Below, one piece after another: positions 1 to 16,734 of a DNA stretch of 60,946 nt. The position numbers were made by a program, and so were the translations under genes. The stretch lies in assembly GCA_042570105.1 (NCBI GenBank), contig JBHPHW010000002.1:1-60946 (forward strand), written 5' to 3'. Origin of the DNA: Candidatus Omnitrophota bacterium (GTDB taxonomy: Bacteria > Omnitrophota > Gorgyraeia > Gorgyraeales > Gorgyraeaceae). Within the stretch, counting starts at the first letter, position 1; every line of letters begins with the position of its first letter. The notes beneath the pieces are model-generated. The model made no database searches, was not told the origin of the DNA, and saw nothing but the letters and a program-made list of their open reading frames with translations.

Positions 1-3000
1 TTCTGGAGAAACCGTAAAATCATATACATAATCTAATATCTGTGGGGTAATGGTCTCAACAACATTGCCAAACATATCTTCCTTGGTGCTCTCTGAAGTT
101 AATGTTGCTGACTGTATTAGGTAGGCAAATTTATCATTGTCATCTTTTTTAAGCGTGTATATATTATTTGTAATGACCTTAGAGCTATAAGGCCCTCCGA
201 AAATATCCAATCCTTCGGTCTCAGATATATTCTGTATAGCCACTGGTCTTCCATAATGCTTGGCTCCTGCTTCATAAGTGGTCGTTGTTGTAGTTGTAAA
301 TTCGTTACCTGATATATCCACGCCTTTTACTATCATTGGGGTAATTTCAGTAGCCTTTACTACGCCCCAGAAAGAACCCACTTCATTTGTCCTCGGATCA
401 ATAAAATCCATCAATCCATAATCCGAAATAATCTCTTGAGATTGGATAGATTCTTGTTTGTTGCCAAGCATGTCTTCGCTTGAGGAAGAATTTGTGGTAG
501 TGGAAGAAGTGGCTAAATACGCGGTCCTACTGTCTTTGCCCGTAACTGTTGAATAATGATATTCGACGCTTGAACTAACCCCAACAATATTACTGAATAT
601 ATCGACATTGCCATCTTTACTTGTAGTAACAGAACTTGCAATATGAACCTGACCCTTTTCTACTGTGTATGCACTATCAGTATGAGTGCTGATGACAGAG
701 CCAAATATATCCCTACCTTCTGTATCTGCATACCCACTCACCCCTATCAAAACACCTTTTCCTTCTCTTCCCGTGTCTGGATCGCTATGGGCTCCATATT
801 CATATTCCATGCGAGAGGTAGTAGTCGTGTTAACACCCAGAAATGTCTCATCTATCCTTGTAGTATCAGCAAAATCAATTTTTGGCTGTCCTTCAAGAAT
901 ATCGTAACTATAACTATTTATCGTAGTAAATGTGAAGGTATTTCCAAATATATCCTGGCCTTCACTAATAGAACTTCCATCGACATTCTTTATAAGGCCT
1001 AGTCTTATAAGGCCGGTATCTGGATCAAGATACGCCTCTTTAATACTGCCGTCTTCATTGAGATATACATATGGAAGTTCTTCTTTGAATTCTGTGCCAT
1101 CTGTATATTCATAATCTACTGTATTGGTCGTATGAACTATATTTCCCTCAAACGTCAGAGCATCAGTAGTGGTGACAGCGGTCTTAATCTTTGCCTCTCC
1201 TCCTACTATTCTATATGTATTCAGCGTGACACTCTCAAAAGGATTACCAAAGATGTCTTCGCCAAGACTAATGCTTGTAGCTGAAAGTTTCACAGCATCA
1301 TTTAGGCCATCTCCATCTGTATCTACAAATGCAAGATAATCTGGGAAATCTCCGTCTCTAATCCATGTTCCGATATAATCTAAATCAGCTTCGTCAAGCT
1401 GACCCTCATCCAAACTAAATTTATCGAATGATATCACGCTGTCAGAATCTGCATCTATCAAAATGCCTTCTTCATCATAAATATAATGGAGTGCGCCAAT
1501 AGAGGTATTTATTGAACCGTCAAGATTTTCAGAATTTGTAAGGGAAATTGAATGGATTACTTTTGCCTCTCCTCTAATAATCTGGTATATGTCTGTACGT
1601 TTAGTTATATAGCGATTGCCAAAAAGATCTTCTCCCCACGTGGTACCGCCACCCTTGGCATTGATAAGCTGGCCCACTTCATTATAGCTATATTCAACCC
1701 ATGAATCTGTCCTGACATATGTTCCATCGAGGGAAGTAGCGGTAATACTTGTCCAATGTCTTGAGCCTTCATCCCATACTGGGGCTGGAGGAGGCGGAGG
1801 GAAGAAAGGTTCTTCTGGAGGAGGTAAGGGGGTCCCTGAAATTATAACAGGGGATTCAAACAATATCTCTTCCTTCTCAGGAGGACCTCTATTTGAAAGG
1901 ATAAATCCTACGAACTCCTTTTTAAATTCTTCTATATCTACTCCGTATAATTTCCCATCTGACTCCAATAGATATACTATATCGTCTTTTACATCTGTAA
2001 TAACAACTGCATGGTCGCCGCCGATCTCAGCAATTACAGGTCCCTTAATCTCTCTAAGCTCATCAATGGTTACATTATAAAGTTTTAAATCCACGCCTTT
2101 TGTAAATGCGACCTTATGTAAGGAATAGAAGGATGAATAAAGGATCGGTGTCTGGCCAGGCTTAATGAGTCCTGATGATAGGTCACTTAGGATTGTTTCT
2201 ACTGCGAGGTCTTCGATAGAAGTCCTGATACCCATCTTTACTAAAGTATTATACAATGCCTTTGAGGCACAGTTTATTACATAGGTACCCATTCTGCGTA
2301 ACCAATCTCCTATCTTTTTAAGACCGCCCGCTTGTTTTACGAAATTATTAGCCCCTGATCCGAGCTGCTGCATTCTTATCTTCAAAAATTCCATTACCCT
2401 ATTTACAATATTTTTAGCTGTTGAAAGTGTTATGCCAAATGCCCTTCTAATATTATTCTTTAAATCAACCCAGATAGTAGTTGTCCTTTCCCCCGCTTCT
2501 TCATAAGTCACTTTTTCTACACCAACAGCATGCCTCGGTGCGGCTTTTGTCGTAACAAATGCTCTATCATCAGGTGTTAATTCTAGGGTAGTATCCACGC
2601 CTTCAGCATCTACCATATGCACAAGAAAGTTCTCTCCTTTATATTCTACGATTATCTCTTCACCTTCAGCTTTACCTTTTCTTAAAAATCTTGTCCTTCC
2701 TGGCCCTACTTCGTATGGCACAAACTGCTCTACCTCTCCCGTAGCAGTTGATTTTATAATAGAAGTGATTTTACCATCCTCTCCGACCTCGATTATCAAT
2801 GGCGCTGATTCAATATCTGAAAATACGCCTAATGGGTCGGCAGTAAGTGGAGAGTGATGAACTATTGTTGCATTAAATTTTAAACTAGGACCTGAGATAG
2901 ATCCATTATAACTCCCTGTTATTTCTCCAGACGGCATCCACTTATTAGATATATCTCCCCACGGGGCATTCGCTTTTCCATAATTCTTAAATCCTTTTAA

Positions 3001-6000
3001 GGTTTGTATAAAGTAGGATCCTAATTCTAAAGTCCCTCCTTCCACTTCTAGATTATTATAGGTACGAATTAACTTTGGTTTATAATAATCCCCATCTTTC
3101 TCCCATGATAGAGTCTGGGTAAAACTTACGATCTTGTCTATAGAGTCATAGTCTGCCTGAATCTTTTCTATCGCTTTCTCAAGTTCTTCTATTTTTGTTT
3201 CTATTTCTGCTATATCTACCATGTCTGTTCCTGGTTTTGTCTTTTCCTCTTCAAGCTCCGCTTTATCTTCGTTCTTTTGTGATATAGCTTTATCTCGAAG
3301 CATCTTAATGACCTCAGTCATATCCTGATATAAAGTACCAGTTGCACCATGCGCCCAAATAGTAAAAGTTATAACTCCAGTTTTAGTTATTTCTTTGGGG
3401 TCATCTAAGTGGCCTTCCCAGTTCCAATAAGCAGCCTTGTCTATTACTTCCTCTGGCTCATCCGGCACTGTTTCAGTCTTTGTTCTAAATACCGTCTGAT
3501 CTTCCCATTTCCCTCCGGATGAAATAACATTTAATCCTAAGCTGGTCTCGACCCATTCGCTTCCATTCCAATATCCTTCCTTCATCTCGATCTCGCCATC
3601 TCTATCCATGTCCTTAGATATCCATCTTCCGCCAGACCATTTACCTTCAACGCACCCGGAAATATACCCATCCCCATTCGTATCATAAACTACCCATTCC
3701 TTAAATTGTAACCAATAATACTCGTCGTCTTGCCAATCGCCTCCCACAGGCTTGTCCCAAAAGTCTTTCGGCAAACCCCAATATCCTTCAACGCCGCCTC
3801 CATTTTTATTACCATATGTTGCGCCGCTGTTCCAGACCCAGTATTGAGTAGTGACAGGATATGTTGTTTTTACCTCGCGGAAGCGTGGTTCCATATGAGT
3901 CTCTGCCTTTATCCATTCTGGTTTTGCATTTGGATAAGAATTGTACTTCATGTCTATAGTAATCTGTGGGTTCCCGAGAACGTCATATCCTGAAAGCTTG
4001 ATAATAAAAGTTACTGGTTCTGATATTGTATGGGTGACAACTTCTCCAGTATCTTCATCTATATATGTTAACTCAAACTCCATATTTATAATGTCGACAA
4101 GCTCTTCTATTACGCCCGGCTCTCTCCTAGAAAACCTCAGCTCTCCATCAGCATCTTCGCTTCTAACAAATAGATTATCTATCTTTATAACTTTGTCTTT
4201 GTCTCCATCTTTGCCTTTTATAGTAAGAATGACTTTCTTTACTACACCCAATCCTGAGTCATCATAGTAAAATTCGACGCTGAAAATATTTTTTAGACTG
4301 CTTGAGAGAATGTTTTTTTGTAGCCAGCTAGAAATAGACCCTACAAAACCATCTTGCCATGGGGATGTTATTGGATTACCATCTTCATCCGTGTAGTTTA
4401 AATCACCCTTAAATACAAACATCTCTTCTTTTAGAGTAGTTCCGCCTATCCTTCTTAAGAGAGATCTAGTAGTAGTAATCAACCCTTCATGTGAATAGCT
4501 GATCATATCTATTGCGTAGCTATCACCATATGGATCAAATCTCTTGCTTTGGGCAACACCTCCGCTACACCGAACTATTGTTGCATAACCAATGGTCCCC
4601 TCTTCAGTATTTGTGGAATAATAATTTGCCCGGTCAATCCCTGGGCCAACATTATTATCAGCTTCGATAATGGTTATGCCCTTATCTCCACGAATCTCCT
4701 TGTGAATCCATTGACCACCATCTTTGACTGTTACGGTGCCGGCTGGGTTAGGCGTGTATTCTCCTTCTTCTGAAAAATAAGAGCTTTCTGTCCCAGTGCC
4801 CTCTGGTCTTATAATTATTAGGCCTGTCATCTCCATATTTTTCCCATAAGTAGCGTATTCTATATGTGCATTTTCAAAATCCTTTGCATTTCCTTTTCTC
4901 CAAAGCTTGAATCCTCCGGTTTTCTCATTCCACTGCTCAACATGACTATAAGTCTCTACTTCTTCTGTTTCAGGATTTAATACTTCTACTGTTTCCCTGA
5001 TAAATACCGCTATTATCTCGCTTGTTTTAGCATCATATGTATACGAATAACGATCACCATCTTCTTCTTCCCAGGATTCCGTATATTCAATTTCATCTCC
5101 TAATTCATCATATTTTCTCGTCCAAGTGTGATTCAACTTACTCGAATCACTTGTGTCCTTATGTGTACGGCTTCTCTTAGTGCCTTCTGCATCATAAGTT
5201 ATCGACTCGTCGTCACTTATTTTATGAGTAAACCTAACCACCCATATCTGCTGCCAATAGCCTTTATCTTTATTAAAATACCATTTCCAGTGAGAATTAT
5301 TTGTCCAGTCCTCAGGATCGCCTTCTGTATAACCTGAAAACTTTTTATACTCGGTAGGATTAGGTAGGAAATCATCGCCGGGCTGTTCATCTTCATCTGT
5401 TTCTTCAGTAAAATCTTTATCCTCAATGCCTCCTTCAGCCCCTTTTATTTCCTTCATAGTTCCAATATCAATAAGCCCTGCACCTCCTGGAACTATGGGT
5501 GAGAGTATATCCCCTTCCCACATATACATAAAATCATCTATGTAGGCTATGATCTCTTTTCCATCATCAATATAAGTAATTTTCGTATCACTGACTTGCG
5601 TTATGACCACATAATGGTCGCCACCAATATGCGCAATCACTGGACGATCTATCCCTCTTAACTGATCTATGGATACATTTACACCCTGAAGCACTAGGCC
5701 CTGTTTTGCAGCAGCCTTCATCATCGAATAGAATGAAAGCTTAAGCTCCCCTCCTATATTTTCAGGAGTTATCACCCCACTCAAAATATCTACCAATATG
5801 GCATCTCTAGCAATCTCTTTTTCATCCACTTCTACCCCGCCTATATTGAAAATATTTCTCAAGGCATTTACTGCGCAGTTTATAACATTTGTAGATGCCC
5901 TCCAGAGCCAGGTCATGATAGTATTTACATAATCCATTGTGAGATTCGCAATGAAGTCTATCCCCACCTCTGCTCCAACTTCTCGAGCCACTTCTTCTAT

Positions 6001-7833
6001 CTCTATCTGTGGGGCACCAACAAGGCGGGATAAGGTGTTTTCTATATTTGTCAAGATAGCGCCCAATTCTCCGGAAGGATTAATAAGGCCTGGCCCTGTC
6101 TGGGCATATCTAAGTTTTGGCTGGCCATTGACAAGTTCGTATTCATTTACTGTGTGGGTTGAAAAGGTCTCCCCAAAGAGATCGATGCCTGTCGTATCTG
6201 TGTAGCCCTTAGCCCCATCCCCTACGAAATCACCAAGTTCGTCATAGAAATATTCTACATGGTTATTTGTAGTTACCGAATTTCCAAATATAGTCTCACT
6301 TACTGTCTCTGTCTCTGAAGAAACCCTCCTGGGCTGGCTTGCGATAATATCGTATTCGCTTTCATTGCGGCTTTCATACCTCGAGCCAAAGACATCCTCT
6401 CCCTCCGTAGTAGAAACTTCCTTTGCGTCAATCAATAAGTTGGTCTCATCATCATAAACATAGTCAAATCTTGTATGGGTCTTGCTCGTGGAGGTATCTG
6501 AATTTACCTGCTCACTGTCAGAAACCGTATATAAAATCTTGAGCTGGCCATTGATGGCCTCATAAAACTGTTCATTCGTGCCCGCATATGTATAAATTAG
6601 CTGCTCATTGGCATCCTTGGCTTCGCCATTAACCTGGGTAAACCCATATGCGCTCTCAATATTGTTGTCTTTGTCATATTTGTACGTAAGTGTACTATCA
6701 GTTACTGAGCTTGTGCCATCTCTATTGATCTGCGTATCTATTGAATGTGACGATGCCATCCTTCCATTCTTAAATTCTCCATCCCAATCACTGATCGTTA
6801 CGTTGCCATATGCGTCTTTAGCCTCCTGGTGATACCCTGTCAAGTTACTGCCTTCATAGGTCAAATCCGACCAGATAGATGTTGATATTATGTTTCCAGT
6901 GGCATCTTTTATTACGTCGCTGTAAGTCGAAAGTTTCCTATCACTGCCATAGCTGTCTCTAGTAGTAGACCAATCGCGCATAGTTGTGGTCCCATATGGA
7001 TCCGTAATAATCTCTTTATATCCTAGAAGATACTTGCCAGCTGATGTATTTGGGCCTGCCCACCATATTGAATCACCCGAATAAACACCATCAAACCAGC
7101 GTATCTTGGTAGCATTACCTAATGAATCTCTTATTTCAGCATCATATGAGACAAGAAGCCTTCTTGAACTATACGTCATGTTGAGCGTATTTTTTAAAGA
7201 ATACTGCCCCAGGCTGTCGTAAGCCGGCTCATTATAGATCGAAGAGGGGAGGCCATTTTTATAATTTACTCTAGAACCATCCTTATTCATCGTGTAGCTA
7301 AACTCAGTAAACGCTGAAGCAGCATCAAACGTATTGCTTCTAGCCTTCATAATCTGATCACTAACAGATTGTGCTTCCTGAGCCTTCCCTACTGCATCCA
7401 TATACAGCCTTCTATTGATATTATAATTTCTAAATTCTCTTCTCCCGCGATCCTCCTGTATTTGCTGACGTCGCTTCATCTCATCCATCTGACGTTTTAT
7501 CATCTTTTTAACGGATTCTATGCGCAAAAAACCAGACTGCTCCCCGTACTTCTTCCGTGGAATAAGCTGGCTCCTGAAAGAGATCTCTGTCTCTTCCGGC
7601 AATTCGTCCTTTTGTATTTTTTGGGTTTTGTCTAATGCGGATTCTGAAATTGCGGATCCTGAAATGAAATCATCTCCCTTGGGTATGGAGATTTTGGGTA
7701 GAGACTTTGTACCGATAGGCGGGATTGAAATAGGAGAAAAATCAGTGGCCCAGGCTATATCATATGTCAAAAAAGCAGCCACGACAATAATAGCGACCAC
7801 TTTTATCCATTTTTTTTCTTGCCAGTCTAACAT
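1..7833 (-). CDS. giant anchored/secreted YD(Rhs)-like repeat protein with two C39-like cysteine-peptidase domains; start in window, 3' end runs off the left edge (>=2611 codons)
   Basis: My manual translation of the minus strand from ATG 7833..7831 stays open to nt 1. It is absent from the ORF track because no stop lies in the window; all + strand ORFs here are short shadows. N-terminus MLDWQEKKWIKVVAIIVVAAFLTYDIAWA. At least 10 copies of [EQ]D[ILM]FG[NSG] and several YxYDxxG motifs. Two NC[AS]xxAL...GGDH.VVIT modules. Confidence 0.8.
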   Translation of the reverse strand, partial: MLDWQEKKWIKVVAIIVVAAFLTYDIAWATDFSPISIPPIGTKSLPKISIPKGDDFISGSAISESALDKTQKIQKDELPEETEISFRSQLIPRKKYGEQSGFLRIESVKKMIKRQMDEMKRRQQIQEDRGRREFRNYNINRRLYMDAVGKAQEAQSVSDQIMKARSNTFDAASAFTEFSYTMNKDGSRVNYKNGLPSSIYNEPAYDSLGQYSLKNTLNMTYSSRRLLVSYDAEIRDSLGNATKIRWFDGVYSGDSIWWAGPNTSAGKYLLGYKEIITDPYGTTTMRDWSTTRDSYGSDRKLSTYSDVIKDATGNIISTSIWSDLTYEGSNLTGYHQEAKDAYGNVTISDWDGEFKNGRMASSHSIDTQINRDGTSSVTDSTLTYKYDKDNNIESAYGFTQVNGEAKDANEQLIYTYAGTNEQFYEAINGQLKILYTVSDSEQVNSDTSTSKTHTRFDYVYDDETNLLIDAKEVSTTEGEDVFGSRYESRNESEYDIIASQPRRVSSETETVSETIFGNSVTTNNHVEYFYDELGDFVGDGAKGYTDTTGIDLFGETFSTHTVNEYELVNGQPKLRYAQTGPGLINPSGELGAILTNIENTLSRLVGAPQIEIEEVAREVGAEVGIDFIANLTMDYVNTIMTWLWRASTNVINCAVNALRNIFNIGGVEVDEKEIARDAILVDILSGVITPENIGGELKLSFYSMMKAAAKQGLVLQGVNVSIDQLRGIDRPVIAHIGGDHYVVITQVSDTKITYIDDGKEIIAYIDDFMYMWEGDILSPIVPGGAGLIDIGTMKEIKGAEGGIEDKDFTEETDEDEQPGDDFLPNPTEYKKFSGYTEGDPEDWTNNSHWKWYFNKDKGYWQQIWVVRFTHKISDDESITYDAEGTKRSRTHKDTSDSSKLNHTWTRKYDELGDEIEYTESWEEEDGDRYSYTYDAKTSEIIAVFIRETVEVLNPETEEVETYSHVEQWNEKTGGFKLWRKGNAKDFENAHIEYATYGKNMEMTGLIIIRPEGTGTESSYFSEEGEYTPNPAGTVTVKDGGQWIHKEIRGDKGITIIEADNNVGPGIDRANYYSTNTEEGTIGYATIVRCSGGVAQSKRFDPYGDSYAIDMISYSHEGLITTTRSLLRRIGGTTLKEEMFVFKGDLNYTDEDGNPITSPWQDGFVGSISSWLQKNILSSSLKNIFSVEFYYDDSGLGVVKKVILTIKGKDGDKDKVIKIDNLFVRSEDADGELRFSRREPGVIEELVDIINMEFELTYIDEDTGEVVTHTISEPVTFIIKLSGYDVLGNPQITIDMKYNSYPNAKPEWIKAETHMEPRFREVKTTYPVTTQYWVWNSGATYGNKNGGGVEGYWGLPKDFWDKPVGGDWQDDEYYWLQFKEWVVYDTNGDGYISGCVEGKWSGGRWISKDMDRDGEIEMKEGYWNGSEWVETSLGLNVISSGGKWEDQTVFRTKTETVPDEPEEVIDKAAYWNWEGHLDDPKEITKTGVITFTIWAHGATGTLYQDMTEVIKMLRDKAISQKNEDKAELEEEKTKPGTDMVDIAEIETKIEELEKAIEKIQADYDSIDKIVSFTQTLSWEKDGDYYKPKLIRTYNNLEVEGGTLELGSYFIQTLKGFKNYGKANAPWGDISNKWMPSGEITGSYNGSISGPSLKFNATIVHHSPLTADPLGVFSDIESAPLIIEVGEDGKITSIIKSTATGEVEQFVPYEVGPGRTRFLRKGKAEGEEIIVEYKGENFLVHMVDAEGVDTTLELTPDDRAFVTTKAAPRHAVGVEKVTYEEAGERTTTIWVDLKNNIRRAFGITLSTAKNIVNRVMEFLKIRMQQLGSGANNFVKQAGGLKKIGDWLRRMGTYVINCASKALYNTLVKMGIRTSIEDLAVETILSDLSSGLIKPGQTPILYSSFYSLHKVAFTKGVDLKLYNVTIDELREIKGPVIAEIGGDHAVVITDVKDDIVYLLESDGKLYGVDIEEFKKEFVGFILSNRGPPEKEEILFESPVIISGTPLPPPEEPFFPPPPPAPVWDEGSRHWTSITATSLDGTYVRTDSWVEYSYNEVGQLINAKGGGTTWGEDLFGNRYITKRTDIYQIIRGEAKVIHSISLTNSENLDGSINTSIGALHYIYDEEGILIDADSDSVISFDKFSLDEGQLDEADLDYIGTWIRDGDFPDYLAFVDTDGDGLNDAVKLSATSISLGEDIFGNPFESVTLNTYRIVGGEAKIKTAVTTTDALTFEGNIVHTTNTVDYEYTDGTEFKEELPYVYLNEDGSIKEAYLDPDTGLIRLGLIKNVDGSSISEGQDIFGNTFTFTTINSYSYDILEGQPKIDFADTTRIDETFLGVNTTTTSRMEYEYGAHSDPDTGREGKGVLIGVSGYADTEGRDIFGSVISTHTDSAYTVEKGQVHIASSVTTSKDGNVDIFSNIVGVSSSVEYHYSTVTGKDSRTAYLATSSTTTNSSSSEDMLGNKQESIQSQEIISDYGLMDFIDPRTNEVGSFWGVVKATEITPMIVKGVDISGNEFTTTTTTTYEAGAKHYGRPVAIQNISETEGLDIFGGPYSSKVITNNIYTLKKDDNDKFAYLIQSATLTSESTKEDMFGNVVETITPQILDYVYDFTVSPE

Positions 7834-7849
7834 CGGCCTTGCCCCCTTC

Positions 7850-7900
7850 AAAAAAAATAGCCGAGTTGCCTAGAAACTCCTCCTTCGGCAACTCGGCTAT
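7850..7900 (-). terminator. intrinsic-terminator-like hairpin plus T tract inside the 5' leader of the left giant gene (terminator of the upstream gene or an attenuator)
   Basis: Minus strand reads ATAGCCGAGTTGCC - 16-nt loop GAAGGAGGAGTTTCTA - GGCAACTCGGCTAT, then a T run. Perfect 14-bp stem at 7857-7870 / 7887-7900. The T tract ends 16 nt before ATG 7833. Confidence 0.45.
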
Positions 7901-8048
7901 CCTTTGCAGGATCCGTGGTTTTGCGTCCCATGATTACTCATGGTTTGCTATTATCGGAGAGGTAAAAAAATTTGTTTCAAATACTTTTAAAATAACTTTA
8001 ATTTAGACTCTAAAAAATATCGTAGCTCCTTATTTTATCTACACTATA

Positions 8049-8077
8049 AGTATATATTATAGATGGGCGTTTGTCAA
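8049..8077 (-). promoter_or_regulatory. sigma70-type promoter candidate for the left giant gene
   Basis: Minus strand TTGACA (8077..8072) - 17 nt - TATACT (8054..8049), about 216 nt upstream of ATG 7833. Confidence 0.4.
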
Positions 8078-8236: not shown

Positions 8237-8491
8237 TTATGCCTCAGGTCCCTTATCGAGCTTAGTGCGTATATCTAAAAGAAGCGCTATTACTCCCGAC
8301 GCTGTGAAGGATATAAAAAAGTAAACCATCCCTAATAGGATAGCAACAAATCCAGTAGCCCGCGGAGCATCAGGTCCTCCTCCGCCTATAAATATTATTA
8401 CTCCAGAAATAAACCCAAATGCTAACGATACCCAGGCCAAAACCTTAAATATTATTGAGCTTATTTTTAAGAACTTACATGTCTTATCCAT
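8237..8491 (-). CDS. small hypothetical membrane protein (84 aa, two hydrophobic helices)
   Basis: ATG preceded by AAGGAGGAAG. Two long hydrophobic stretches flank a GGGGPDAPR loop. No family recognised. Confidence 0.6.
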   Translation of the reverse strand: MDKTCKFLKISSIIFKVLAWVSLAFGFISGVIIFIGGGGPDAPRATGFVAILLGMVYFFISFTASGVIALLLDIRTKLDKGPEA

Positions 8492-8600: not shown

Positions 8601-8678
8601 TGGTAGCCCTAAGGGGATTTGAACCCCTGTCTTCAGATCGAGAATCTGACGTCCTGGGCCGGACTAGACGATAGGGCC
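8601..8678 (-). tRNA. tRNA-Glu (anticodon CUC), CCA encoded
   Basis: Hand-folded cloverleaf: acceptor GGCCCTA/TAGGGCT, anticodon stem TCAGA/TCTGA, loop TTCTCGA, T arm AGGGG-TTCAAAT-CCCCT. The D arm TCGTCTAG..AGGAC is typical of tRNA-Glu. Confidence 0.9.
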
Positions 8679-8900: not shown

Positions 8901-10070
8901 ATGAGTACACTCATAGGTGTTGGCACAAGTATAAAACTGGATTCTTTGAAAGCCGGCCAGGAAGCTGCGAGACTCGCATATTACAAACTGAACAAACAGG
9001 CCCCGGATATAATAATTGCATTCATATCTACCATCTTTAATCAGATAGAGGCTATAAGAGGAATAAGGTCCATTATAAAAGAAACGCCGCTAGTGGGGTG
9101 TAGCTCTGCCGGCAGCATAAGTGCCTTCGGGGCCTTACGAAATTCTATAGCGGTATGCGCTATTAAGTCTAGCGATATCAGCTTTTCTTATGGCGTAGGA
9201 AACAACATAAGCAAAAATCCACGCTTAGCTGGAATGAACGCTGTAAGGGCTTCTTCCACCAAGTTAAAAAATGTCAAAAGAGGGCTCTACCTCATGTTTT
9301 CTGACGGCCTATCAGGAAAAGGGACAGACGCCCTCAGGGGAGCGCAGGAAATATTAGGGACCAGTTTTCCTATAATAGGCGGGGCTGCAACGGATGATTT
9401 TCATTTTCAAAAAACATACCAGTATCTTAATAATATCTACACGGATAGTATAGTGGGGATCCTTATGAGCGGGAAGATCAATGTCGGCATAGGGGGCGCT
9501 CATGGCTGGCAGCCAATCGGAAGGCCTCACAAAATCACAAGGGCAGAATCCAGCATGCTTAAAGAGATAGACAGAAGAAAAGCCGTTGAACTCTACGAGG
9601 AATATTTAAGTAAGTCCTTTGATGAATTAAAGATGGAGGGAATTGCCAAATTAGGTTCGCATTATCCGCTGGGGGTGCGGATGGAAGGAAAAAAACAATA
9701 CCTCATAAGGGCTCCCATAAAAATGGAGGATAATGGCAATCTAATGTTAACTACCGAGATCCCTGAACGTGAATACATAAACCTGATGATAGGGGATAAA
9801 AACCTGGCCTTGGAAGCTACAAAGAGGGCATGCACAAAAGCCTTAGGGAGCCTTGTAAAATCCAAAATTAAATTTGCGATTGTCTTTAGCGATATAGCAA
9901 GGCTCAAGCTTCTAAAAAAGGATTCACAAAGTGAAGTAGAAATAATAAAAGATATCCTTGGTAAGGGTGTGCCATTTTTTGGGTGTTATACCTGCGGAGA
10001 ATATGCGCCGCTTAATGGGCAATCCTATTTTCACAATCAAGCTATATCTGTAGCAGTTTTTTCAGAATAG
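8901..10070 (+). CDS. FIST-domain signal-transduction protein
   Basis: 389 aa. The C-terminal GCYTCGEYAPLNG..YFHNQ is characteristic of FIST_C. It sits directly upstream of a histidine kinase. Confidence 0.65.
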   Translation: MSTLIGVGTSIKLDSLKAGQEAARLAYYKLNKQAPDIIIAFISTIFNQIEAIRGIRSIIKETPLVGCSSAGSISAFGALRNSIAVCAIKSSDISFSYGVGNNISKNPRLAGMNAVRASSTKLKNVKRGLYLMFSDGLSGKGTDALRGAQEILGTSFPIIGGAATDDFHFQKTYQYLNNIYTDSIVGILMSGKINVGIGGAHGWQPIGRPHKITRAESSMLKEIDRRKAVELYEEYLSKSFDELKMEGIAKLGSHYPLGVRMEGKKQYLIRAPIKMEDNGNLMLTTEIPEREYINLMIGDKNLALEATKRACTKALGSLVKSKIKFAIVFSDIARLKLLKKDSQSEVEIIKDILGKGVPFFGCYTCGEYAPLNGQSYFHNQAISVAVFSE

Positions 10071-10080
10071 GGGCAAAAAT

Positions 10081-11553
10081 ATGGAACTGTATTATATAAT
10101 CTTTTCGGTAATAGTCATGGGGATAGCTTTTATTGTATCTAGCCATGAGAGGGATAAGCGCGTTTCCTCAGAAATAAAAAACAAGAGCCTGCAGGATGTC
10201 GTGGATCAGCTTGATGAACAGGCGAAGATGATTATAAAAACAGACCTTGCCCTTGCCAAAGTACAAGAAGAACTGGACAAGAAAATAACAGGCCTCTATA
10301 CGCTCCACGAACTCGGGAAAAAGATAAACTCTACCTTTAACATAGAAGACCTGTTTATGCTGATAAATCGGCCTCTTGTTTTAAAATTAGGTTTTTCAAA
10401 TGCCCTGATCATGCTAAAAGACAGGGCCTCTGGCACCATCCTCACAAAAACATCTATTGGTTACCGAGAGGCCGAGATCGAAAGAATAGAAAAAGAACTA
10501 AATAAAGGGGATACATCTCTATCTCTTTTTAGAAAACATGGATTTTTATTGGTAAATAGAGACCTGGAAAAAATAGAGCATGAGGACCTCTTTTCAGATA
10601 TATTTAAAACCAGGTCTTTTCTGACGGTCCCTATTGTCGCAAAGGACGAGGCTGTAGGATTTATACTTATAGGAAACACATCCAGTTACAGCAAGGTAAC
10701 AGAGGGTGATGCAGAACTTCTATCTGTATTGGCCAGCCAGATAGGCACAGCTATTGAGAATACAGGGCTTTATACAGAGCTTTTTAATTCCCACCAGGAA
10801 CTGGAAAGAAGGGTAAAAGAGAGGACCCTGGAACTCGCAAAACTCAATGAAGAACTGAAAAGGTTGAATAAGGAAAAATCAAATTTTGTATCTGCCGTAG
10901 CCCATGAGCTCAGGACACCCCTTACGTCTATAAAAGGCTATGCCTCGCTTCTCACAAGAGGAAAATTAGGCGAGCTTTCTCCTGAACAAAAAGAACGTCT
11001 TGAAAAAATAGATAAACATTCGGATAGCCTTGCGCACTTAGTAAATAATCTACTGGATATAGCAAGAATAGAATCGGGCAGGGTGCAGATGGAGATAAAA
11101 GAAATATCCATAAAAGAGCTGCTGGATTCTATCGTAGATATCATTACGCCTCAGATAAAAGATAAAAAAATCTCTCTCAAGGTAAACGCGAAAACAAAGG
11201 TAGATAAGATAAAAGCCGATCCAGGCCAACTAGAAAGGGTCTTTCTGAACCTTTTGAGTAACGCTACAAAGTTTACGCCGGAAAAAGGGAAAATAACTAT
11301 ATATATAGAAGAAAAGGGCTCATCTATTGAATTTGGCATAGAAGATAGCGGCATAGGGATCGCAAAACAAGATCTAGAAAAGGTGTTTGAGGAATTCTTC
11401 AGGACAAGGAACGCTCAGGACCAGAAAATAAAAGGTACTGGCCTTGGGCTATCTCTTGTCAAAAAAATAGTAGCGGCCCATAAAGGCAGAATATGGGTGG
11501 ATTCAGAACTTGGGAGAGGGACAAAATTTAGCTTCACTATACCGAGATCTTGA
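10081..11553 (+). CDS. sensor histidine kinase (TM anchor, GAF-like domain, HisKA, HATPase_c)
   Basis: H box AHELRTPLTSIKGY, N box NLLSNATKFT, G boxes EDSGIGI and GTGLGLSLVKKIV. Confidence 0.9.
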   Translation: MELYYIIFSVIVMGIAFIVSSHERDKRVSSEIKNKSLQDVVDQLDEQAKMIIKTDLALAKVQEELDKKITGLYTLHELGKKINSTFNIEDLFMLINRPLVLKLGFSNALIMLKDRASGTILTKTSIGYREAEIERIEKELNKGDTSLSLFRKHGFLLVNRDLEKIEHEDLFSDIFKTRSFLTVPIVAKDEAVGFILIGNTSSYSKVTEGDAELLSVLASQIGTAIENTGLYTELFNSHQELERRVKERTLELAKLNEELKRLNKEKSNFVSAVAHELRTPLTSIKGYASLLTRGKLGELSPEQKERLEKIDKHSDSLAHLVNNLLDIARIESGRVQMEIKEISIKELLDSIVDIITPQIKDKKISLKVNAKTKVDKIKADPGQLERVFLNLLSNATKFTPEKGKITIYIEEKGSSIEFGIEDSGIGIAKQDLEKVFEEFFRTRNAQDQKIKGTGLGLSLVKKIVAAHKGRIWVDSELGRGTKFSFTIPRS

Positions 11554-11572
11554 TAGATACAAGGAAAGTCTT

Positions 11573-12511
11573 ATGTCAAACGAAAAAATATTAATAGTGG
11601 ATGATGATCCTGACATATTGGATGTATTGAAAATAACGCTTGAAGACGAAGGCTATGAGGTAATAGAAGGGCATGATGGCCAGGAAGCAGTAGATATCAT
11701 TAAAAAGACAATTCCCGATCTATTGATAACAGACTTTAATATGCCTAAAATAAACGGGGATGAGGTCTGCAAAATCTTAAAACAGGACATGCTGATCCAA
11801 CACATGCCTATTATAATGCTGACAGGCAAAGGTGAAGTCAGCGACAAGGTCCAAAGCATAGATGCGGGCGCGGATGACTATATAGTAAAACCCTTTGAGC
11901 CGCAGGAACTTGTAGCAAGGGTCAAAATGGCATTACGCAAAACTGTCAGGGATCTAGATGCCAATCCTTTGACAAGGCTTCCGGGAAACGTCTCCATCCT
12001 CAATGAAATGCAGAGACGTATAGACAATAATGAGCTTTTCGCAGTCTTTTATATCGATCTGGATAAATTTAAGGCATTTAACGATAAATATGGCTTTAAA
12101 AGGGGGGACGAGGTCATAAAAAATACTGCCAGGTTCCTGATAAATTCAGTGCAGGAAAAAGGCGCGCCCCAGGATTTTATAGGCCATATAGGCGGCGATG
12201 ATTTTGTAGTAGTAACAACCCCTGAGACGATAGATGAGGTATGTAAATCTATCATAGCCAATTTTGACTCAATGGTGCCAGATCTATATACTAAGGAAGA
12301 CAATAAAAAAGGTTACGTAGTCGGCAAGAACAGGCTTGGGAAGAAAGAAAAGATACCTCTGATGTCTATTTCTATAGCTGTAGTAACTAATAAAAAGAAA
12401 AAAATAAACCACGTGGGAGAAGTGGGAGAGATAGGCGCAGAGCTAAAAGAATACGCTAAAACACTAAAAGGAAGCAATTACGTAACAGAACGTCGCAGAA
12501 AAACTACCTAA
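11573..12511 (+). CDS. response regulator: receiver domain fused to a GGDEF-type cyclase domain with variant GGDDF signature
   Basis: Start moved to ATG 11573 (MSNEKILIVDDD, AAGGAAAG upstream), because the track start at 11510 overlaps the kinase. REC motifs DD...D...K. Cyclase motifs LTRLPGN, DLDKFKAFNDKYGFKRGD, GHIGGDDF. Confidence 0.85.
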   Translation: MSNEKILIVDDDPDILDVLKITLEDEGYEVIEGHDGQEAVDIIKKTIPDLLITDFNMPKINGDEVCKILKQDMLIQHMPIIMLTGKGEVSDKVQSIDAGADDYIVKPFEPQELVARVKMALRKTVRDLDANPLTRLPGNVSILNEMQRRIDNNELFAVFYIDLDKFKAFNDKYGFKRGDEVIKNTARFLINSVQEKGAPQDFIGHIGGDDFVVVTTPETIDEVCKSIIANFDSMVPDLYTKEDNKKGYVVGKNRLGKKEKIPLMSISIAVVTNKKKKINHVGEVGEIGAELKEYAKTLKGSNYVTERRRKTT

Positions 12512-12551: not shown

Positions 12552-12637
12552 TGGTGCGCGGAACAGGATTTGAACCTGCATAGGATTGCTCCCGCTAGCC
12601 CCTCAAGCTAGTGTGTCTGCCATTCCACCACCCGCGC
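12552..12637 (-). tRNA. tRNA-Leu (anticodon GAG), long variable arm, CCA encoded
   Basis: GCGCGGGTGGTGGAATGGCAGACAC..., anticodon stem CTAGC/GCTAG, loop TTGAGGG; 86 nt. Confidence 0.9.
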
Positions 12638-12638
12638 A

Positions 12639-12712
12639 TGGCTGGAGGAGATGGATTCGAACCATCACAACAGGTTCCAGAGACCTGTGTCCTACCATTA
12701 GACAATCCTCCA
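12639..12712 (-). tRNA. tRNA-Gln (anticodon CUG), CCA encoded
   Basis: TGGAGGA...TCCTCCA-G-CCA with the U1:A72 pair typical of bacterial tRNA-Gln. Anticodon loop CTCTGGA. Confidence 0.9.
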
Positions 12713-13092: not shown

Positions 13093-14370
13093 TTAAAAGT
13101 CGCCTCTTAAAACTCCTTCTAACCTCTCTATAGTCTTTTCTTTCCCCAAAAGCGCCAAAACCTCGAATATCCCTGCTGAAACACTTTTTCCTGTAACAGC
13201 TACTCTCAGAGGATGTATTAAATCCCCTCCCTTTAAACCCAGTTCCTTTACAAGGGCCCTTAGCTGAGTCTCAATACCTTCAAGCGTAAAGTCTTCTATC
13301 CCTTCTATACGTTCCTTCGCTAGTTTCAGTATACCTAAAACTCCTTCTTTTTTCAAAAATTTTTCTACCTCTTCACTTCTATAATGTACTTTTCTGGAGG
13401 TAAATATATCAAGTTCTTCCTTAAATTCGAGAAGGGTCTTTACCCTATTGTGATAGAGTCCGACAAACTTCCTGAACCACTCTGGGTCATGATCGCCTCC
13501 AATAAATGCAGTGAGCATATTCGTCAACTTGTCTACGTCTAATTTCTTTATATGCTCGCCATTGAGCCAACGCAGTTTCCCCTCATCAAACTCTGCGCCT
13601 CTTTTATTGACACGCTTTAGGCCGAATCTTTTTATTATTGTGTCTACCTCCATAAATTCTCTATTATCCCCGGGCGCCCATCCTAAAAGCGCAAGGTAAT
13701 TAACCATCGCTTCCGGGAGATACCCTTTTTCTTTATATTCCGATACGGCCACTGCGCCAAACCTTTTAGAAAGACGGGATTTATCTGGCGCCAGTATCAA
13801 TGGTATGTGGACAAATTTTGGCGGTTTTGCGCCAAGCGCATTATATAAGGCGATCTGTTTATTTGTATTTGAAATATGGTCATCTCCTCTTATAATATGC
13901 GAGGTCTTCATCTCAATATCGTCGACAACGCAGGCAAAATTAAATGCAGCTCTCTTGTCTGATTTTATCAAAACAAGTTCACCTATGAGGGCATTGTCCA
14001 CTTCGATCTCCCCATGTATAACGTCATAGATCTTTATCTTTTCAGGCGGAACTTTAAAGATAACCGCTTCTCCATCTTTATACGCCATGCCTTTTTTGAG
14101 CAGCTTTTCCGCATAAGATAGATATAGATCCAGACGTTTACTCTGAAAATATGGCCCTTCATCCCAGTCCAGGCCAAGCCACTGGAGACTTGAAAGTATT
14201 TCCTTCAAATAGGAATCTTTTGAGCGGTCCTTATCTGTATCTTCTATCCTCAGGATAAATTTTCCAGACTGAGACCTTGCGTATAACCAGTTAAAAAGGG
14301 CTGTCCTTGCGCTTCCTATATGCAAATTTCCTGTAGGGGATGGCGCAAATCTAACGCGAACCATACTCAT
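13093..14370 (-). CDS. gltX: glutamate--tRNA ligase
   Basis: RFAPSPTGNLHIGSARTALFNW (HIGH motif), RLSKR (KMSKS motif), RIEDTD. 425 aa. An alternative start exists at 14364. Confidence 0.9.
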   Translation of the reverse strand: MSMVRVRFAPSPTGNLHIGSARTALFNWLYARSQSGKFILRIEDTDKDRSKDSYLKEILSSLQWLGLDWDEGPYFQSKRLDLYLSYAEKLLKKGMAYKDGEAVIFKVPPEKIKIYDVIHGEIEVDNALIGELVLIKSDKRAAFNFACVVDDIEMKTSHIIRGDDHISNTNKQIALYNALGAKPPKFVHIPLILAPDKSRLSKRFGAVAVSEYKEKGYLPEAMVNYLALLGWAPGDNREFMEVDTIIKRFGLKRVNKRGAEFDEGKLRWLNGEHIKKLDVDKLTNMLTAFIGGDHDPEWFRKFVGLYHNRVKTLLEFKEELDIFTSRKVHYRSEEVEKFLKKEGVLGILKLAKERIEGIEDFTLEGIETQLRALVKELGLKGGDLIHPLRVAVTGKSVSAGIFEVLALLGKEKTIERLEGVLRGDF

Positions 14371-14890
14371 AACCCTTTCTTATTGCCTCTTCGTTTACAG
14401 GTATCATGTTCAGGCGACTCTTTGGGATGACATCTTTCAGTGAGGCTATCAAGGACTCTACCGGTAAAATATTTTTTTTCGCTAAAAACGAACCGAGTAT
14501 GATCATATTGCTAACACGCATATTCCCTAATTGCACAGCCATGTCTGTGGCTGGAATTTCCAAGATATCGATGTCGTCCCTCTTGGCCTTGATCTCTATT
14601 AAAGACTTGTTTATGATCAATATTCCTTTGGCCTTGATTTTATCTTCAAATTTCTGAAGCGATGGCTTATTCATGACTATACATGCGCTCGGCTCTTTTA
14701 CTATAGGAGAAGCAATTGACGAACTTGAGATAACGACCATGGAATGAGCTGTGCCTCCTCTCACCTCTGCGCCATAAGAAGGCATCCAGGTAACAAATTT
14801 CCCCTCATTCATTGCGGCATAAGACAAGGCCTTACCCATTAACATTATACCCTGCCCGCCGAATCCTGCAAAAATAATATCTTCCCGCAC
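14351..14890 (-). CDS. 2-oxoacid:ferredoxin oxidoreductase, gamma subunit
   Basis: FAGFGGQGIMLMGK N-terminus. The GTG start overlaps the beta-subunit stop (TAGTG). Confidence 0.85.
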   Translation of the reverse strand: MREDIIFAGFGGQGIMLMGKALSYAAMNEGKFVTWMPSYGAEVRGGTAHSMVVISSSSIASPIVKEPSACIVMNKPSLQKFEDKIKAKGILIINKSLIEIKAKRDDIDILEIPATDMAVQLGNMRVSNMIILGSFLAKKNILPVESLIASLKDVIPKSRLNMIPVNEEAIRKGYEYGSR

Positions 14891-15630
14891 TATTGACCCT
14901 CGTTTTTAAATATGCCCAATGGATATTCCTTTACCATGCTTTCTCCCATCCACTTAACAGCATCTTTAGGTGAAAGGCCTAGATAAGTAGGGCATGGTGA
15001 AAGCACCTCAACAATAGAAAAACCCCGCCCCTCGATTTGATTCTGGAGGGCCTTTTTTACTGCCTTTTTCGCCTTTAAAATATGCTGCGGCGTATGGACT
15101 GAAGCCCTTTCTGCATAAAAAACACCCGGGAGAGTAGCTATCAATTCGCATACCTTGACCGGGAAGCCGTCTCTTTTTTGATCTCGCCCAAGAGGCGTAG
15201 TGCTTGTCTTTTGCTTTAGCATTGTCGTAGGGGCCATCTGCCCCCCTGTCATCCCATAAACTGCATTATTAATAAAATAGATCGTTATGTTTTCTCCTCT
15301 ATTCGCCGCATGTATTATCTCTGCGGTGCCTATTGCTGCGAGGTCTCCGTCTCCCTGATATCCAAAAACTATATTTTTTGGACTCGCCCTCTTTATGCCT
15401 GTTGCAACTGCCGGCACCCGGCCATGCGCTGCCTCTGTTACATCAAAATCCCAATAATCATACGCTATAACTGCGCAACCAACAGGGGCAATGCCCACAA
15501 CTGACTCTCTTATACCAAATTCATCGATTGCCTCACAAATAAGCCTATGCACTATCCCATGGCCACAACCACTACAATAGTGGGTAGCTACATCCCTCAT
15601 ACTTTTTGGTTTTGAGAATATCTTTTTCAT
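14890..15630 (-). CDS. 2-oxoacid:ferredoxin oxidoreductase, beta (TPP-binding) subunit
   Basis: CSGCGHG near the N-terminus; GDGD...NNAVYGMTGGQ TPP motif. Confidence 0.9.
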   Translation of the reverse strand: MKKIFSKPKSMRDVATHYCSGCGHGIVHRLICEAIDEFGIRESVVGIAPVGCAVIAYDYWDFDVTEAAHGRVPAVATGIKRASPKNIVFGYQGDGDLAAIGTAEIIHAANRGENITIYFINNAVYGMTGGQMAPTTMLKQKTSTTPLGRDQKRDGFPVKVCELIATLPGVFYAERASVHTPQHILKAKKAVKKALQNQIEGRGFSIVEVLSPCPTYLGLSPKDAVKWMGESMVKEYPLGIFKNEGQ

Positions 15631-15637
15631 AATCTTA

Positions 15638-15678
15638 TGATGGGAGTCGGGAACCCAATAGGTTCCCGACTCCCATCA
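15638..15678. repeat. REP-like element, full palindrome (18-bp perfect stem, 5-nt loop)
   Basis: TGATGGGAGTCGGGAACC-CAATA-GGTTCCCGACTCCCATCA. It fills the gap between the alpha and beta subunit genes. Confidence 0.8.
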
Positions 15679-16734
15679 TATCCCTATCTTTGCAATTTCC
15701 TTCAATATCTCTTCCTCTGTCGGGACCCCCCCGCCAGAACGGCCATAAAAATGAACCGGCTTACTGCAATCTATACTGAGCTTGACATCCTCCACCATCT
15801 GGCCACAGCTCATCTCTACCACTAAAAATGCATCTACATCTTTTGCCAATTCCTTTAACTCTTTTTCTGGAAACGGCCAAAGACTTATCGGCCTGAACAT
15901 GCCGACCTTTTTGCCATCCCCTCGTAATCTCTCGACAAGTTTTCTACAGATCCTGCTTGGGGTACCATAGGCCACTATCATGATCTTACTATTATCCCCA
16001 TATAAAATTTCACAGCGGGTCTCTTTTTTCCTGATCTGATCATATTTTTTCTGTAATTTCTCGTTCAGTCTCTCCAACACCCCTTCTTCCAGCAAAAGCG
16101 ATCTTATAATCCTCGGGTTTCTTCCCTTGCATCCAGTTAGAACCCAATCTTTTTCGCCGCTCGCCGCTCGCTGTCCGTGATCCGCTCTTAGCTCCACCGG
16201 CTCCATCATCTGGCCCAGAATGCCGTCACCTAAAATCATTACAGGTGTCCTATACTTATCGGCGAGGTCGAAAGAAAGTATTGTCAAGTCTACTACCTCC
16301 TGCAGGGATGCCGGCGCCAGTACTATCTGGCGATAATCACCATGGCCTCCCCCTCTTGTGGCCTGAAAATAATCACTCTGGCTCGGCGCTATATTCCCAA
16401 GGCCTGGCCCGCCTCTCATCATATTTACGATCACTGCAGGAAGCTCACACGCTGCAAGATATGATATCCCCTCCTGCTTGAGGCTGATACCCGGGCTCGA
16501 AGAAGATGTCATGCCTCTTGCGCCTGTAAGAGATGCGCCAAAAACCATATTTATAGCAGCCAATTCACTCTCTGCCTGTATAAAGACTCCGCCCACTTCT
16601 GGCATGCGCCTAGACATATAGGCTGGGATCTCATTTTGCGGAGTAATAGGGTATCCTGCATAGAATCTGCATCCTGCCAGTATAGCCGCCTCTCCCAAAA
16701 CCTCATTTCCGCACATCAAGACTTTTTTTGCCAT
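15676..16734 (-). CDS. 2-oxoacid:ferredoxin oxidoreductase, alpha subunit
   Basis: MCGNEVLGEAAILAGCRFYAGYPITPQNEI is typical of KorA/PorA-type alpha subunits. Confidence 0.9.
   Translation of the reverse strand: MAKKVLMCGNEVLGEAAILAGCRFYAGYPITPQNEIPAYMSRRMPEVGGVFIQAESELAAINMVFGASLTGARGMTSSSSPGISLKQEGISYLAACELPAVIVNMMRGGPGLGNIAPSQSDYFQATRGGGHGDYRQIVLAPASLQEVVDLTILSFDLADKYRTPVMILGDGILGQMMEPVELRADHGQRAASGEKDWVLTGCKGRNPRIIRSLLLEEGVLERLNEKLQKKYDQIRKKETRCEILYGDNSKIMIVAYGTPSRICRKLVERLRGDGKKVGMFRPISLWPFPEKELKELAKDVDAFLVVEMSCGQMVEDVKLSIDCSKPVHFYGRSGGGVPTEEEILKEIAKIGI

Follow-up and report, generated by a model that had tools for sequence, protein, structure and literature searches.

Do the products of the giant genes of Candidatus Omnitrophota act whole or are they cut, and how are these genes regulated? 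West-Roberts et al. (10.1101/2023.11.21.568195) posed both as questions, and both are raised again by the left end of the window, by which we mean the whole 60,946-nt stretch of Candidatus Omnitrophota DNA analysed here (contig JBHPHW010000002.1 of assembly GCA_042570105.1). There, on the minus strand, a frame reads open from an ATG at 7833 to nt 1. We consider it on balance probable that this gene encodes a riboswitch-controlled, exported and self-cleaving giant protein built of hairpin arrays, with a possible toxin at its far end. Proteins of this class have already been described. What is new is a predicted cleavage site, a conserved riboswitch with a signalling operon, and a pretoxin-HINT clue to the C-terminus.

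The giant gene and its family

Machine translation of 7833..1 gives 2,611 codons with no stop, so that the original prediction of a giant frame open to the edge is borne out, as are all the positions it gave for motifs and for Cys and His codons. It had also remarked that this open reading frame (ORF) is missing from the supplied track. This is because only ORFs that end inside the source are listed, and one that runs off its end is not. The window is the entire contig (P0001, a self-match at 100%); the gene is therefore truncated by the contig end, that is, by the assembly. The motif D[ILMV][FLY]G[NSGE] starts at aa 480, 551, 2069 and 2193 (nt 6382-6396, 6169-6183, 1615-1629 and 1243-1257) and at aa 2294, 2375, 2543 and 2586 (nt 940-954, 697-711, 193-207 and 64-78), and YIYDEEG starts at aa 2117 (nt 1465-1485). 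In 2,000 shuffles of the protein, the first motif was found on average 0.16 times and at most 3 times, against 10 in the real sequence. YxYDxxG occurs 4 times (shuffle mean 0.18, maximum 2; 2,000 shuffles). An artefactual or non-coding ORF is ruled out by conservation across more than 70 loci and by the domain matches described below.

All homologues come from metagenome-assembled genomes of Candidatus Omnitrophota. They are large and mostly partial, they are 44-61% identical to the coding sequence at 1..7833 (minus strand) in the best local alignment, and several carry the NCBI name “cysteine peptidase family C39 domain-containing protein”. Exhaustive searching with aa 1-1200 as query returned 473 relatives. 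Contig ends truncate all the true orthologues, at 3,237 aa or less; two of the modules, the C39-like one and one near the N-terminus (aa ~90-350), each recur in many other proteins. Genome scans with a single protein as query found nothing, and a family alignment was needed as query. With that query, 72 loci were recovered from species genomes and metagenomes, and the contigs of the family all end before the gene does. The frame stays open longest in L079 (5,379 aa), L044 (4,310 aa) and P0013 (4,228 aa), and orthologues run at least 1,200-2,700 residues past the point where the protein of the window is cut. We take the ORF to be the first 2,611 residues of a presumably exported protein that is confined to Omnitrophota and far longer, probably exceeding 5,000 aa.

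The one orthologue annotated as complete, P0011 (locus L006; 2,029 aa), was rejected as such: an overlapping ORF of 1,103 aa continues to the contig end (L006 12044-15352), so that the gene is either frameshifted or truly split. What look like stops in L017 and L025 come from N-masked sequence. The tail of P0003 (locus L002; aa 2719-3109) consists of near-identical tandem units of ~140 aa, with 72 exactly repeated 15-mers; repeats of this type may be a reason why short-read contigs break in the gene. Most orthologues other than P0003 have few or no exact tandem repeats.

How does this family relate to the giants already known from the phylum? West-Roberts et al. (10.1101/2023.11.21.568195) described Omnitrophota proteins with a signal peptide, a C39 domain near the N-terminus and long regions free of Pfam matches, predicted Rhs-like beta-helix tubules of open form “sharing features with RHS repeat proteins”, and proposed cleavage of the giants into smaller polypeptides. 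Among very long Omnitrophota proteins, Nielsen & Lui 2026 (10.64898/2026.06.07.730766) reported a cluster of 24 proteins with a PF03412-only architecture. The protein of the window shares with these giants the phylum, the signal and the C39 domain near the N-terminus. In contrast, the part of it in the window has none of their glycoside hydrolase (GH), transferase, methyltransferase, SecA or dockerin content. West-Roberts et al. treated a length class of at least 7,000 aa, whereas the lengths here are at least 2,611 aa for the window and at least 5,379 aa for L079, on contigs that all end within the gene. As far as full-text search shows, neither preprint mentions a cleavage site or a riboswitch for these giants.

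The protein begins with a conserved head of ~800 residues, which comprises a signal or anchor with the motif MLDWQ, a charged helical region, a first hairpin array and a first C39 module. Beyond the head are a variable middle, a second C39 module, a proline-rich linker and a long, open-ended second hairpin array. The leader (aa 1-29; 7747..7833, minus strand) reads MLDWQEKKWIK, followed by a hydrophobic segment and A-W-A↓T, as in a Sec signal peptide or signal anchor. It contains the only hydrophobic 19-mer of the 2,611 aa, its motif is invariant across the family, and it would direct export of the protein. A leader of the form MLDWQxKKWxK...F(L/I)xYD(I/V)AWAxDFSP is common to otherwise unrelated Omnitrophota giants of SecA type and DUF89/methyltransferase type (P0012-P0016, L032-L042 and L066-L078), which suggests a phylum-specific export or sorting signal rather than a generic signal peptide. 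Two loci, L007 (P0013) and L026 (P0012), share with the family of the window its riboswitch and its first ~350 residues, and the P0013 locus also has the same upstream operon. The bodies of these two proteins are entirely different: they lack C39 and contain many YD hairpins of canonical appearance. Head and regulatory module appear to be reused with different bodies.

The regulatory leader and the adjoining operon

The original prediction covered the gene up to its ATG, and a regulatory leader lies just outside that stretch. An aptamer of the cyclic di-GMP (c-di-GMP)-I riboswitch clan occupies 7883..7958 of the 5ʹ leader, on the strand of the gene (minus). It is a full-length match to Rfam RF03168 (67.2 bits against a gathering threshold of 65.9; E 2e-12), and the orthologous leaders match the c-di-GMP-I model RF01051 at 58-69 bits against a gathering threshold of 35. 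With our own covariance model, R1, the aptamer is found immediately ahead of the gene in 21 of the 23 loci from species genomes and in all 25 loci from metagenomes. R1 gave no match in distant giants whose resemblance is confined to the MLDWQ leader, and none ahead of a second giant ORF of the window, of 7,737 aa. The G before CAAAC and the 3ʹ GCC of the window aptamer match the canonical c-di-GMP-I consensus. We rejected the “UAU” variant, to which RF03168 corresponds, as a sign of another ligand, since the aptamer has the canonical nucleotides and is scored, in five orthologues, as ordinary c-di-GMP-I; the label is treated as a close call within Rfam clan CL00126. The putative ligand is a cyclic dinucleotide, most likely c-di-GMP.

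The aptamer overlaps an intrinsic terminator at 7850..7900 (minus strand), in which a 14-bp hairpin (stem 7900-7887 / 7870-7857) is followed by U8 (T8 at 7857-7850). The 3ʹ strand of the aptamer (AGCCGAGUUGCC) is at the same time the 5ʹ arm of the terminator. This overlap is found in 8 of 9 aligned leaders and in all 21 aptamer-bearing genome loci, with compensatory changes, and the minimum free energy (MFE) fold of the leader, at -52.5 kcal/mol (z -4.8), forms the terminator. Since the strand is shared and the MFE fold contains the terminator, an aptamer stabilised by its ligand should prevent termination. The leader would then be an ON switch. A match to the Rfam model bglG-cis-reg (20.8 bits against 80) is merely the terminator hairpin. 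The leader also contains a ribosome binding site, GAAGGGGG (7842..7849, minus strand), 8 nt ahead of the ATG at 7833 and conserved in the leader alignment. A promoter-like TTGACA-17-TATACT at 8049..8077 (minus strand), ~90 nt upstream of the aptamer, is a match to the consensus only, at 11 of 12 positions.

With known c-di-GMP-I (GEMM-I) riboswitches the leader shares the aptamer, the terminator-type platform and the control of a large, presumably exported protein. It differs from them in being found in Omnitrophota, before a giant gene, and paired with an operon for a FIST sensor, a kinase and a GGDDF protein. Our full-text literature searches turned up no report of a riboswitch linked to Omnitrophota giant genes.

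This operon (8901..12511, plus strand) is divergent from the giant gene and adjoins it in seven of the eight fetched loci. By Pfam, it encodes a FIST sensor (8901-10070), a GAF histidine kinase (10081-11553) and a response regulator with a GGDEF-type domain whose signature is GGDDF (11573-12511), all on the plus strand. Cyclase activity of this response regulator is plausible from its sequence, and the operon may be the source of the riboswitch ligand. PilZ genes and GGDEF domains have been described near or inside giant genes by West-Roberts et al. (10.1101/2023.11.21.568195). The genes surrounding the giant gene are ordinary chromosomal genes. Upstream of it, always between a tRNA gene and the riboswitch, is a conserved ORF of 81-84 aa (8237-8491, minus strand in the window), in which a GGGG loop joins two hydrophobic segments; it has no significant family match. 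In the other genomes, too, the giant-gene locus is accompanied by the tRNA gene that lies at 8604-8678 in the window. Two more tRNA genes lie at 12555-12637 and 12642-12712, and all three are on the minus strand.

Peptidase modules, a double-glycine-type motif and hairpin arrays

Is the giant protein equipped to be cut? The original prediction of two paralogous papain/C39-like modules is confirmed. Module 1 spans aa 640-782 (5488..5916, minus strand), with Cys653 (nt 5875-5877), His740 (nt 5614-5616) and Asp757; module 2 spans aa 1842-1985 (1879..2310, minus strand), with Cys1855 (nt 2269-2271), His1941 (nt 2011-2013) and Glu1957. Pfam PF03412 (Peptidase_C39) matches the protein at 65 bits overall and the modules at 37 and 35 bits, respectively, against a cutoff of 22, and the two modules are 45% identical (E 4e-27). 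Module 2 is 68-73% identical in close orthologues. In 13 relatives, with 24-26 modules between them, neither Cys nor His ever varies and an acidic third residue is conserved; an invariant Asn directly precedes the catalytic Cys in the module alignment. A profile made from 20 modules and run against PDB sequences had only two significant matches, to PCAT1 (E 5.5e-8) and LahT (E 1.6e-4). A comparison with peptidases of this type, as earlier proposed, succeeded for module 1: its AlphaFold2 (AF2) model fits LahT (6mpz_B, by Foldseek) with a TM-score of 0.70 and a root-mean-square deviation of 3.9 Å over 136 columns, with Cys653 at the N-terminus of a helix and a strand beginning at His740. The structural model covers module 1, and the assignment of module 2 to C39 rests on profile and paralogy.

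The modules share the fold and the Cys-His-Asp triad with LahT (6MPZ), PCAT1 (4RY2/7N87) and ComA. Unlike the C39 domains of peptidase-containing ABC transporters (PCAT) and ABC transporter maturation and secretion (AMS) proteins, they are not fused to an ABC exporter. Instead, they occur in two or three copies within a giant protein that is itself predicted to be exported, and no ABC transmembrane or ATPase domain was found in the giant protein or its neighbouring genes.

Shortly after module 1 is a double-glycine-type motif (5437..5472, minus strand), I788..M793-K-E-I796-K-G798-A799↓E800, which we predict to be a self-cleavage site. The core of it, MKEIKGA↓E, covers aa 793-800. The rule for LahT and ComA substrates is that hydrophobic residues at -12, -7 and -4 lie on a two-turn helix that is followed by Gly-Gly, Gly-Ala or Gly-Ser (PMC6363468), and the motif satisfies every recognition position. 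The pattern [EA][LM]xxI[KRT]G[AS] is found ~53 residues past the His740 position in every family member, in 13 of 13 relatives. Position by position, these have a hydrophobic residue at -12 (12/13), Leu or Met at -7 (12/13), Ile at -4 (13/13), Gly at -2 (13/13) and Ala or Ser at -1 (13/13). The AF2 model has a short helix at aa 790-795. Conservation among orthologues ends exactly at the motif, and the alignment with L079 (49% identity) stops at residue 801. Of 34 C39-like modules in distant proteins, 16 are followed by the motif 25-75 residues past the His, 14 of them at 52-57 residues, against a background of 6% per 50-aa window. A third module of L079 (~aa 3,629) is likewise followed by such a site. 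The halt of conservation at the motif, the contrast in identity between head and middle (45-64% against 17-43%, the latter with gapped, patchy coverage) and the recurrence in distant modules together support a functional site. Module 1 would thus cleave its own chain at Ala799↓Glu800. In PCAT and AMS systems the motif belongs to a substrate with a short leader peptide; here, protease and motif share one chain, with the motif on the C-terminal side, and a head of several hundred residues stands in for the leader peptide.

The variable middle that follows (aa 800-1800; 2434..5436, minus strand) is acidic and Trp-rich, with DxDxDG motifs resembling calcium loops and a coiled-coil stretch; its EF-hand and coiled-coil matches are sub-threshold only. 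DxDxDG motifs of this kind are located at 3658-3693 and 1294-1323 (minus strand), with sub-threshold matches to EF-hand (aa 1381-1392) and TSP3_bac (aa 2171-2180). Matches to these two models, to DUF4298/coiled-coil and to Imm17 score too low to be taken as family assignments. There are four cysteines in the 2,611 aa, and two of them are the catalytic Cys653 and Cys1855.

Both hairpin arrays are predicted to be uninterrupted runs of antiparallel strands of 11-20 residues (predicted local distance difference test, pLDDT, 78-82). Array 1 (aa 180-581; 6091..7296, minus strand) has ~25 long strands in AF2 model mb50ae90b061d, which covers aa 170-815 with a mean pLDDT of 81.5; 10-residue blocks of the array mostly reach 79-95. 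Array 2, the DIFGN array (aa 2035-2611; 1..1731, minus strand), continues off the contig and has ~30 strands of 12-20 residues in model mf2223bd525b1 (pLDDT 78.5). Nearly every long turn is of the form D-x-x-G-x and alternates with 2-residue turns, and DIFGN and YxYDxxG are two versions of one 5-residue YD-type turn. The best Foldseek matches of array 1 in the PDB are RhsA 7q97 (E 5e-11), the teneurin-like 9ifo (2e-8), teneurin-3 8r54 (6e-8) and a Yersinia BC component, 4igl_D (4e-7); those of array 2 are TcdB2-TccC3 6suq (6e-6) and 9ifo (1e-5). The Foldseek probabilities of these Rhs, teneurin and Tc shell matches are 0.85-0.99.

The original prediction had called this region YD/Rhs-like. The description holds for the fold, given the modelled hairpins and the Foldseek matches, but not for the family. 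Of the profiles it named, Peptidase_C39 matched and the Rhs half failed: no Pfam or NCBIfam match to RHS_repeat (PF05593) or YD (TIGR01643) was found in the whole protein or in 300-aa segments at E<=10, on the arrays alone, or in L079, and the whole-family profile found no Rhs or teneurin sequence in the PDB. The Rhs core motif PxxxxDPxGL is absent from 15 relatives and from L079 (5,367 aa), sequences that stop short of the true C-termini. With RhsA (7Q97), TcB-TcC (4IGL/6SUQ) and the teneurins (8R54/9IFO), the arrays share an antiparallel hairpin sheet and turns of the YxYDxxG type. They differ from Rhs/YD shells in being interrupted by C39 modules, in lacking the core autoprotease motif and in their much greater length: an Rhs shell is far shorter than the hairpin tails of orthologues, which exceed 1,200-1,700 aa. 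On the modelled structures, then, the arrays are Rhs-like in sheet type and fold, outside membership of the Rhs family.

The far C-terminus, competing explanations and a proposed mechanism

What does the giant protein carry at its far end? The original prediction placed a toxin just beyond the window. This is not borne out, since orthologues continue for at least 1,200-2,700 residues. The longest of them, L079, has a DxFG hairpin tail to ~aa 3,490. Beyond this come the third C39 module and its GG-type site, then YD hairpins, a stretch of helical “FWDYL” repeats that extends over ~1,000 aa, a linker rich in Gly and, at ~aa 5,180, a Hint domain (CFVAGTKV ... TPNH ... VHN) that matches Pretoxin-HINT (PT-HINT) at E 1.2e-5. 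The helical repeats, between the YD region and the Hint domain (aa ~4100-5100; nt ~13350-16350), are ~60-70 residues long with the motif (F/L)W(D/E)YL...G(G/S), and have no family match. All 55 database relatives of the Hint segment carry PF07591, and in several of them LHH, Ntox, SHH, deaminase, HNH or restriction endonuclease toxin domains follow. No family locus besides L079 reaches as far as the Hint domain. By analogy with L079 and its relatives, a C-terminus of polymorphic-toxin type is plausible for the family, thousands of residues past the window.

Polymorphic toxin systems with releasing peptidases and pretoxin-HINT domains were reportedly described by Zhang, Aravind and colleagues in 2012. 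CdiA-type toxins are giant filamentous proteins, and multifunctional autoprocessing repeats-in-toxin (MARTX) toxins process themselves by means of an internal cysteine protease. The giant protein resembles polymorphic toxins in its putative export signal, its conserved head and variable body, its long beta repeats and its internal peptidases, and in the PT-HINT domain of L079, whose relatives precede toxin domains. It differs from them in having a C39 peptidase in place of C80 or some other releasing peptidase already known, and in that no toxin or immunity gene was seen among the family loci.

Several observations weigh against a riboswitch-controlled, self-cleaving giant with a toxin at its end. 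The aptamer of the window scores marginally better with the “UAU” variant model RF03168. The cyclase signature of the operon is GGDDF, not GG[DE]EF, and is invariant in seven orthologues. The N-terminal half of the C39 modules is divergent, such that Pfam aligns just model positions 45-126, and the module alignment has Ser, Gly or Thr in place of the Gln found at -6 from the Cys in PCAT and AMS peptidases; the role of this Gln has itself been questioned (PMC6363468). Module 2 has no downstream GG-type site in that alignment, and AF2 confidence is low around Gly798-Ala799. TM-scores to Rhs shells, for fragment models, are very low, at 0.04-0.11, and argue against a closed cocoon; the resemblance would therefore concern the type of sheet. 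The PT-HINT match comes from one orthologue, at 26.0 bits against a gathering threshold of 27.7, on a contig that ends 55 residues later. Finally, every mechanistic step is read from sequence.

The strongest rival is an adhesin or surface fibre induced by c-di-GMP and free of any toxin, in which the hairpin arrays and calcium-loop motifs would build a long structure for attachment to host or prey, and the C39 modules would only mature or shed it. c-di-GMP riboswitches typically switch on adhesins and other surface structures, and the architecture of this leader is of the ON type. The repeat-rich, Cys-poor, acidic sequence with its EF-hand- and TSP3-like loops would suit such a fibre, and no toxin domain was seen in any of the more than 70 family loci, all on contigs that break inside the gene. 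Against this stand the pretoxin-HINT domain of L079 and the toxin modules that it precedes in relatives. Because this alternative departs from the explanation we favour in its C-terminal payload alone, we take it seriously, although we think it unlikely.

A second rival concerns the peptidases. The C39 modules could act in trans on substrates with double-glycine leaders, or bind without catalysis in the manner of HlyB, and the motif after module 1 could be a helix cap. The lack of a GG-type site after module 2, the missing canonical oxyanion Gln and the disorder of the GG residues in the AF2 model are all consistent with this, and the C39-like domain of HlyB is the top, non-significant match of the whole-family profile. 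However, Cys and His are invariant in every module, and the two Cys are half of the four cysteines of the protein, whereas a C39-like domain is without the Cys (PMC6363468). Furthermore, the motif fits all five recognition positions and not simply Gly-Ala, and small genes for GG-leader peptides were not seen in the conserved neighbourhood of the fetched loci. We regard this rival as improbable. That the protein is a true Rhs toxin, with a cocoon around a C-terminal toxin that the Rhs core aspartyl protease releases, would fit the best Foldseek matches (RhsA, teneurins and TcB/TcC), the YxYDxxG turns and the pretoxin domain of one orthologue, but is very improbable in view of the missing RHS_repeat, YD and Rhs-core profile matches, the absence of DPxGL from 16 sequences, the division of the arrays by peptidase modules, the low TM-scores (0.04-0.11), tails longer than 1,200-1,700 aa and the open tubule that West-Roberts et al. 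predict for such Omnitrophota regions.

How might the riboswitch-controlled, self-cleaving giant work? We propose that a cyclic dinucleotide, most likely c-di-GMP, binds the aptamer, and that the leader terminator is then read through. The aptamer and terminator are present in the leader; the ligand and its source are what we infer, and the signal would probably come from the adjoining FIST/kinase/response-regulator-GGDEF system. The N-terminal signal would then export the protein, and module 1 would cut after Gly798-Ala799 and so detach the variable body from the conserved head. Where a relative has additional units of module-1 type, such as that at ~aa 3,629 of L079, its chain might be cut again. 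The hairpin arrays would build an Rhs-like sheet or tubule, that is, a surface fibre or sheath. The single relative L079 suggests by analogy that a HINT-released toxin may sit at the far C-terminus, which would make the protein a device resembling polymorphic toxins in an epibiotic or predatory lifestyle. In its fullest form, the proposal is of a giant gated by a second messenger that dismantles itself: a c-di-GMP riboswitch, C39 cuts in cis, and a product consisting of a head, a YD-sheathed body and a HINT-released toxin. We offer this complete version tentatively, as a possibility we would not yet bet on.

The window contains a second giant gene, at 31288-54501 (minus strand). Its 7,737-aa product has GH15 and methyltransferase domains (Archaeovorin-like) and shows no BLASTP similarity to the C39 giant protein. 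Near its N-terminus, where MLDWQ is found at residue 11, it is similar to P0014, a protein with a SecA domain; the gene is without the riboswitch. Adjoining it, at 29711-31285 (plus strand), is a gene for a SurA-like Rotamase_2 peptidyl-prolyl isomerase. Peptidyl-prolyl isomerases have been described in giant-gene neighbourhoods by West-Roberts et al. (10.1101/2023.11.21.568195).

Omnitrophota giant genes rank among the largest known. The predicted Ala799↓Glu800 bond, the 76-nt aptamer with its terminator and the sensor-kinase-cyclase operon provide handles on the processing of such a protein and on its regulation. If the proposal holds in its fullest form, double-glycine processing in cis would be seen for the first time outside ABC exporters. 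No Omnitrophota giant protein would have had a defined cleavage map before, and no gene of this kind would previously have been shown to be under riboswitch control. The conserved head, the variable body and the pretoxin-HINT domain would also tie a giant protein of this phylum to the logic of polymorphic toxins, which fits the predatory or epibiotic lifestyle that has been proposed for these bacteria.

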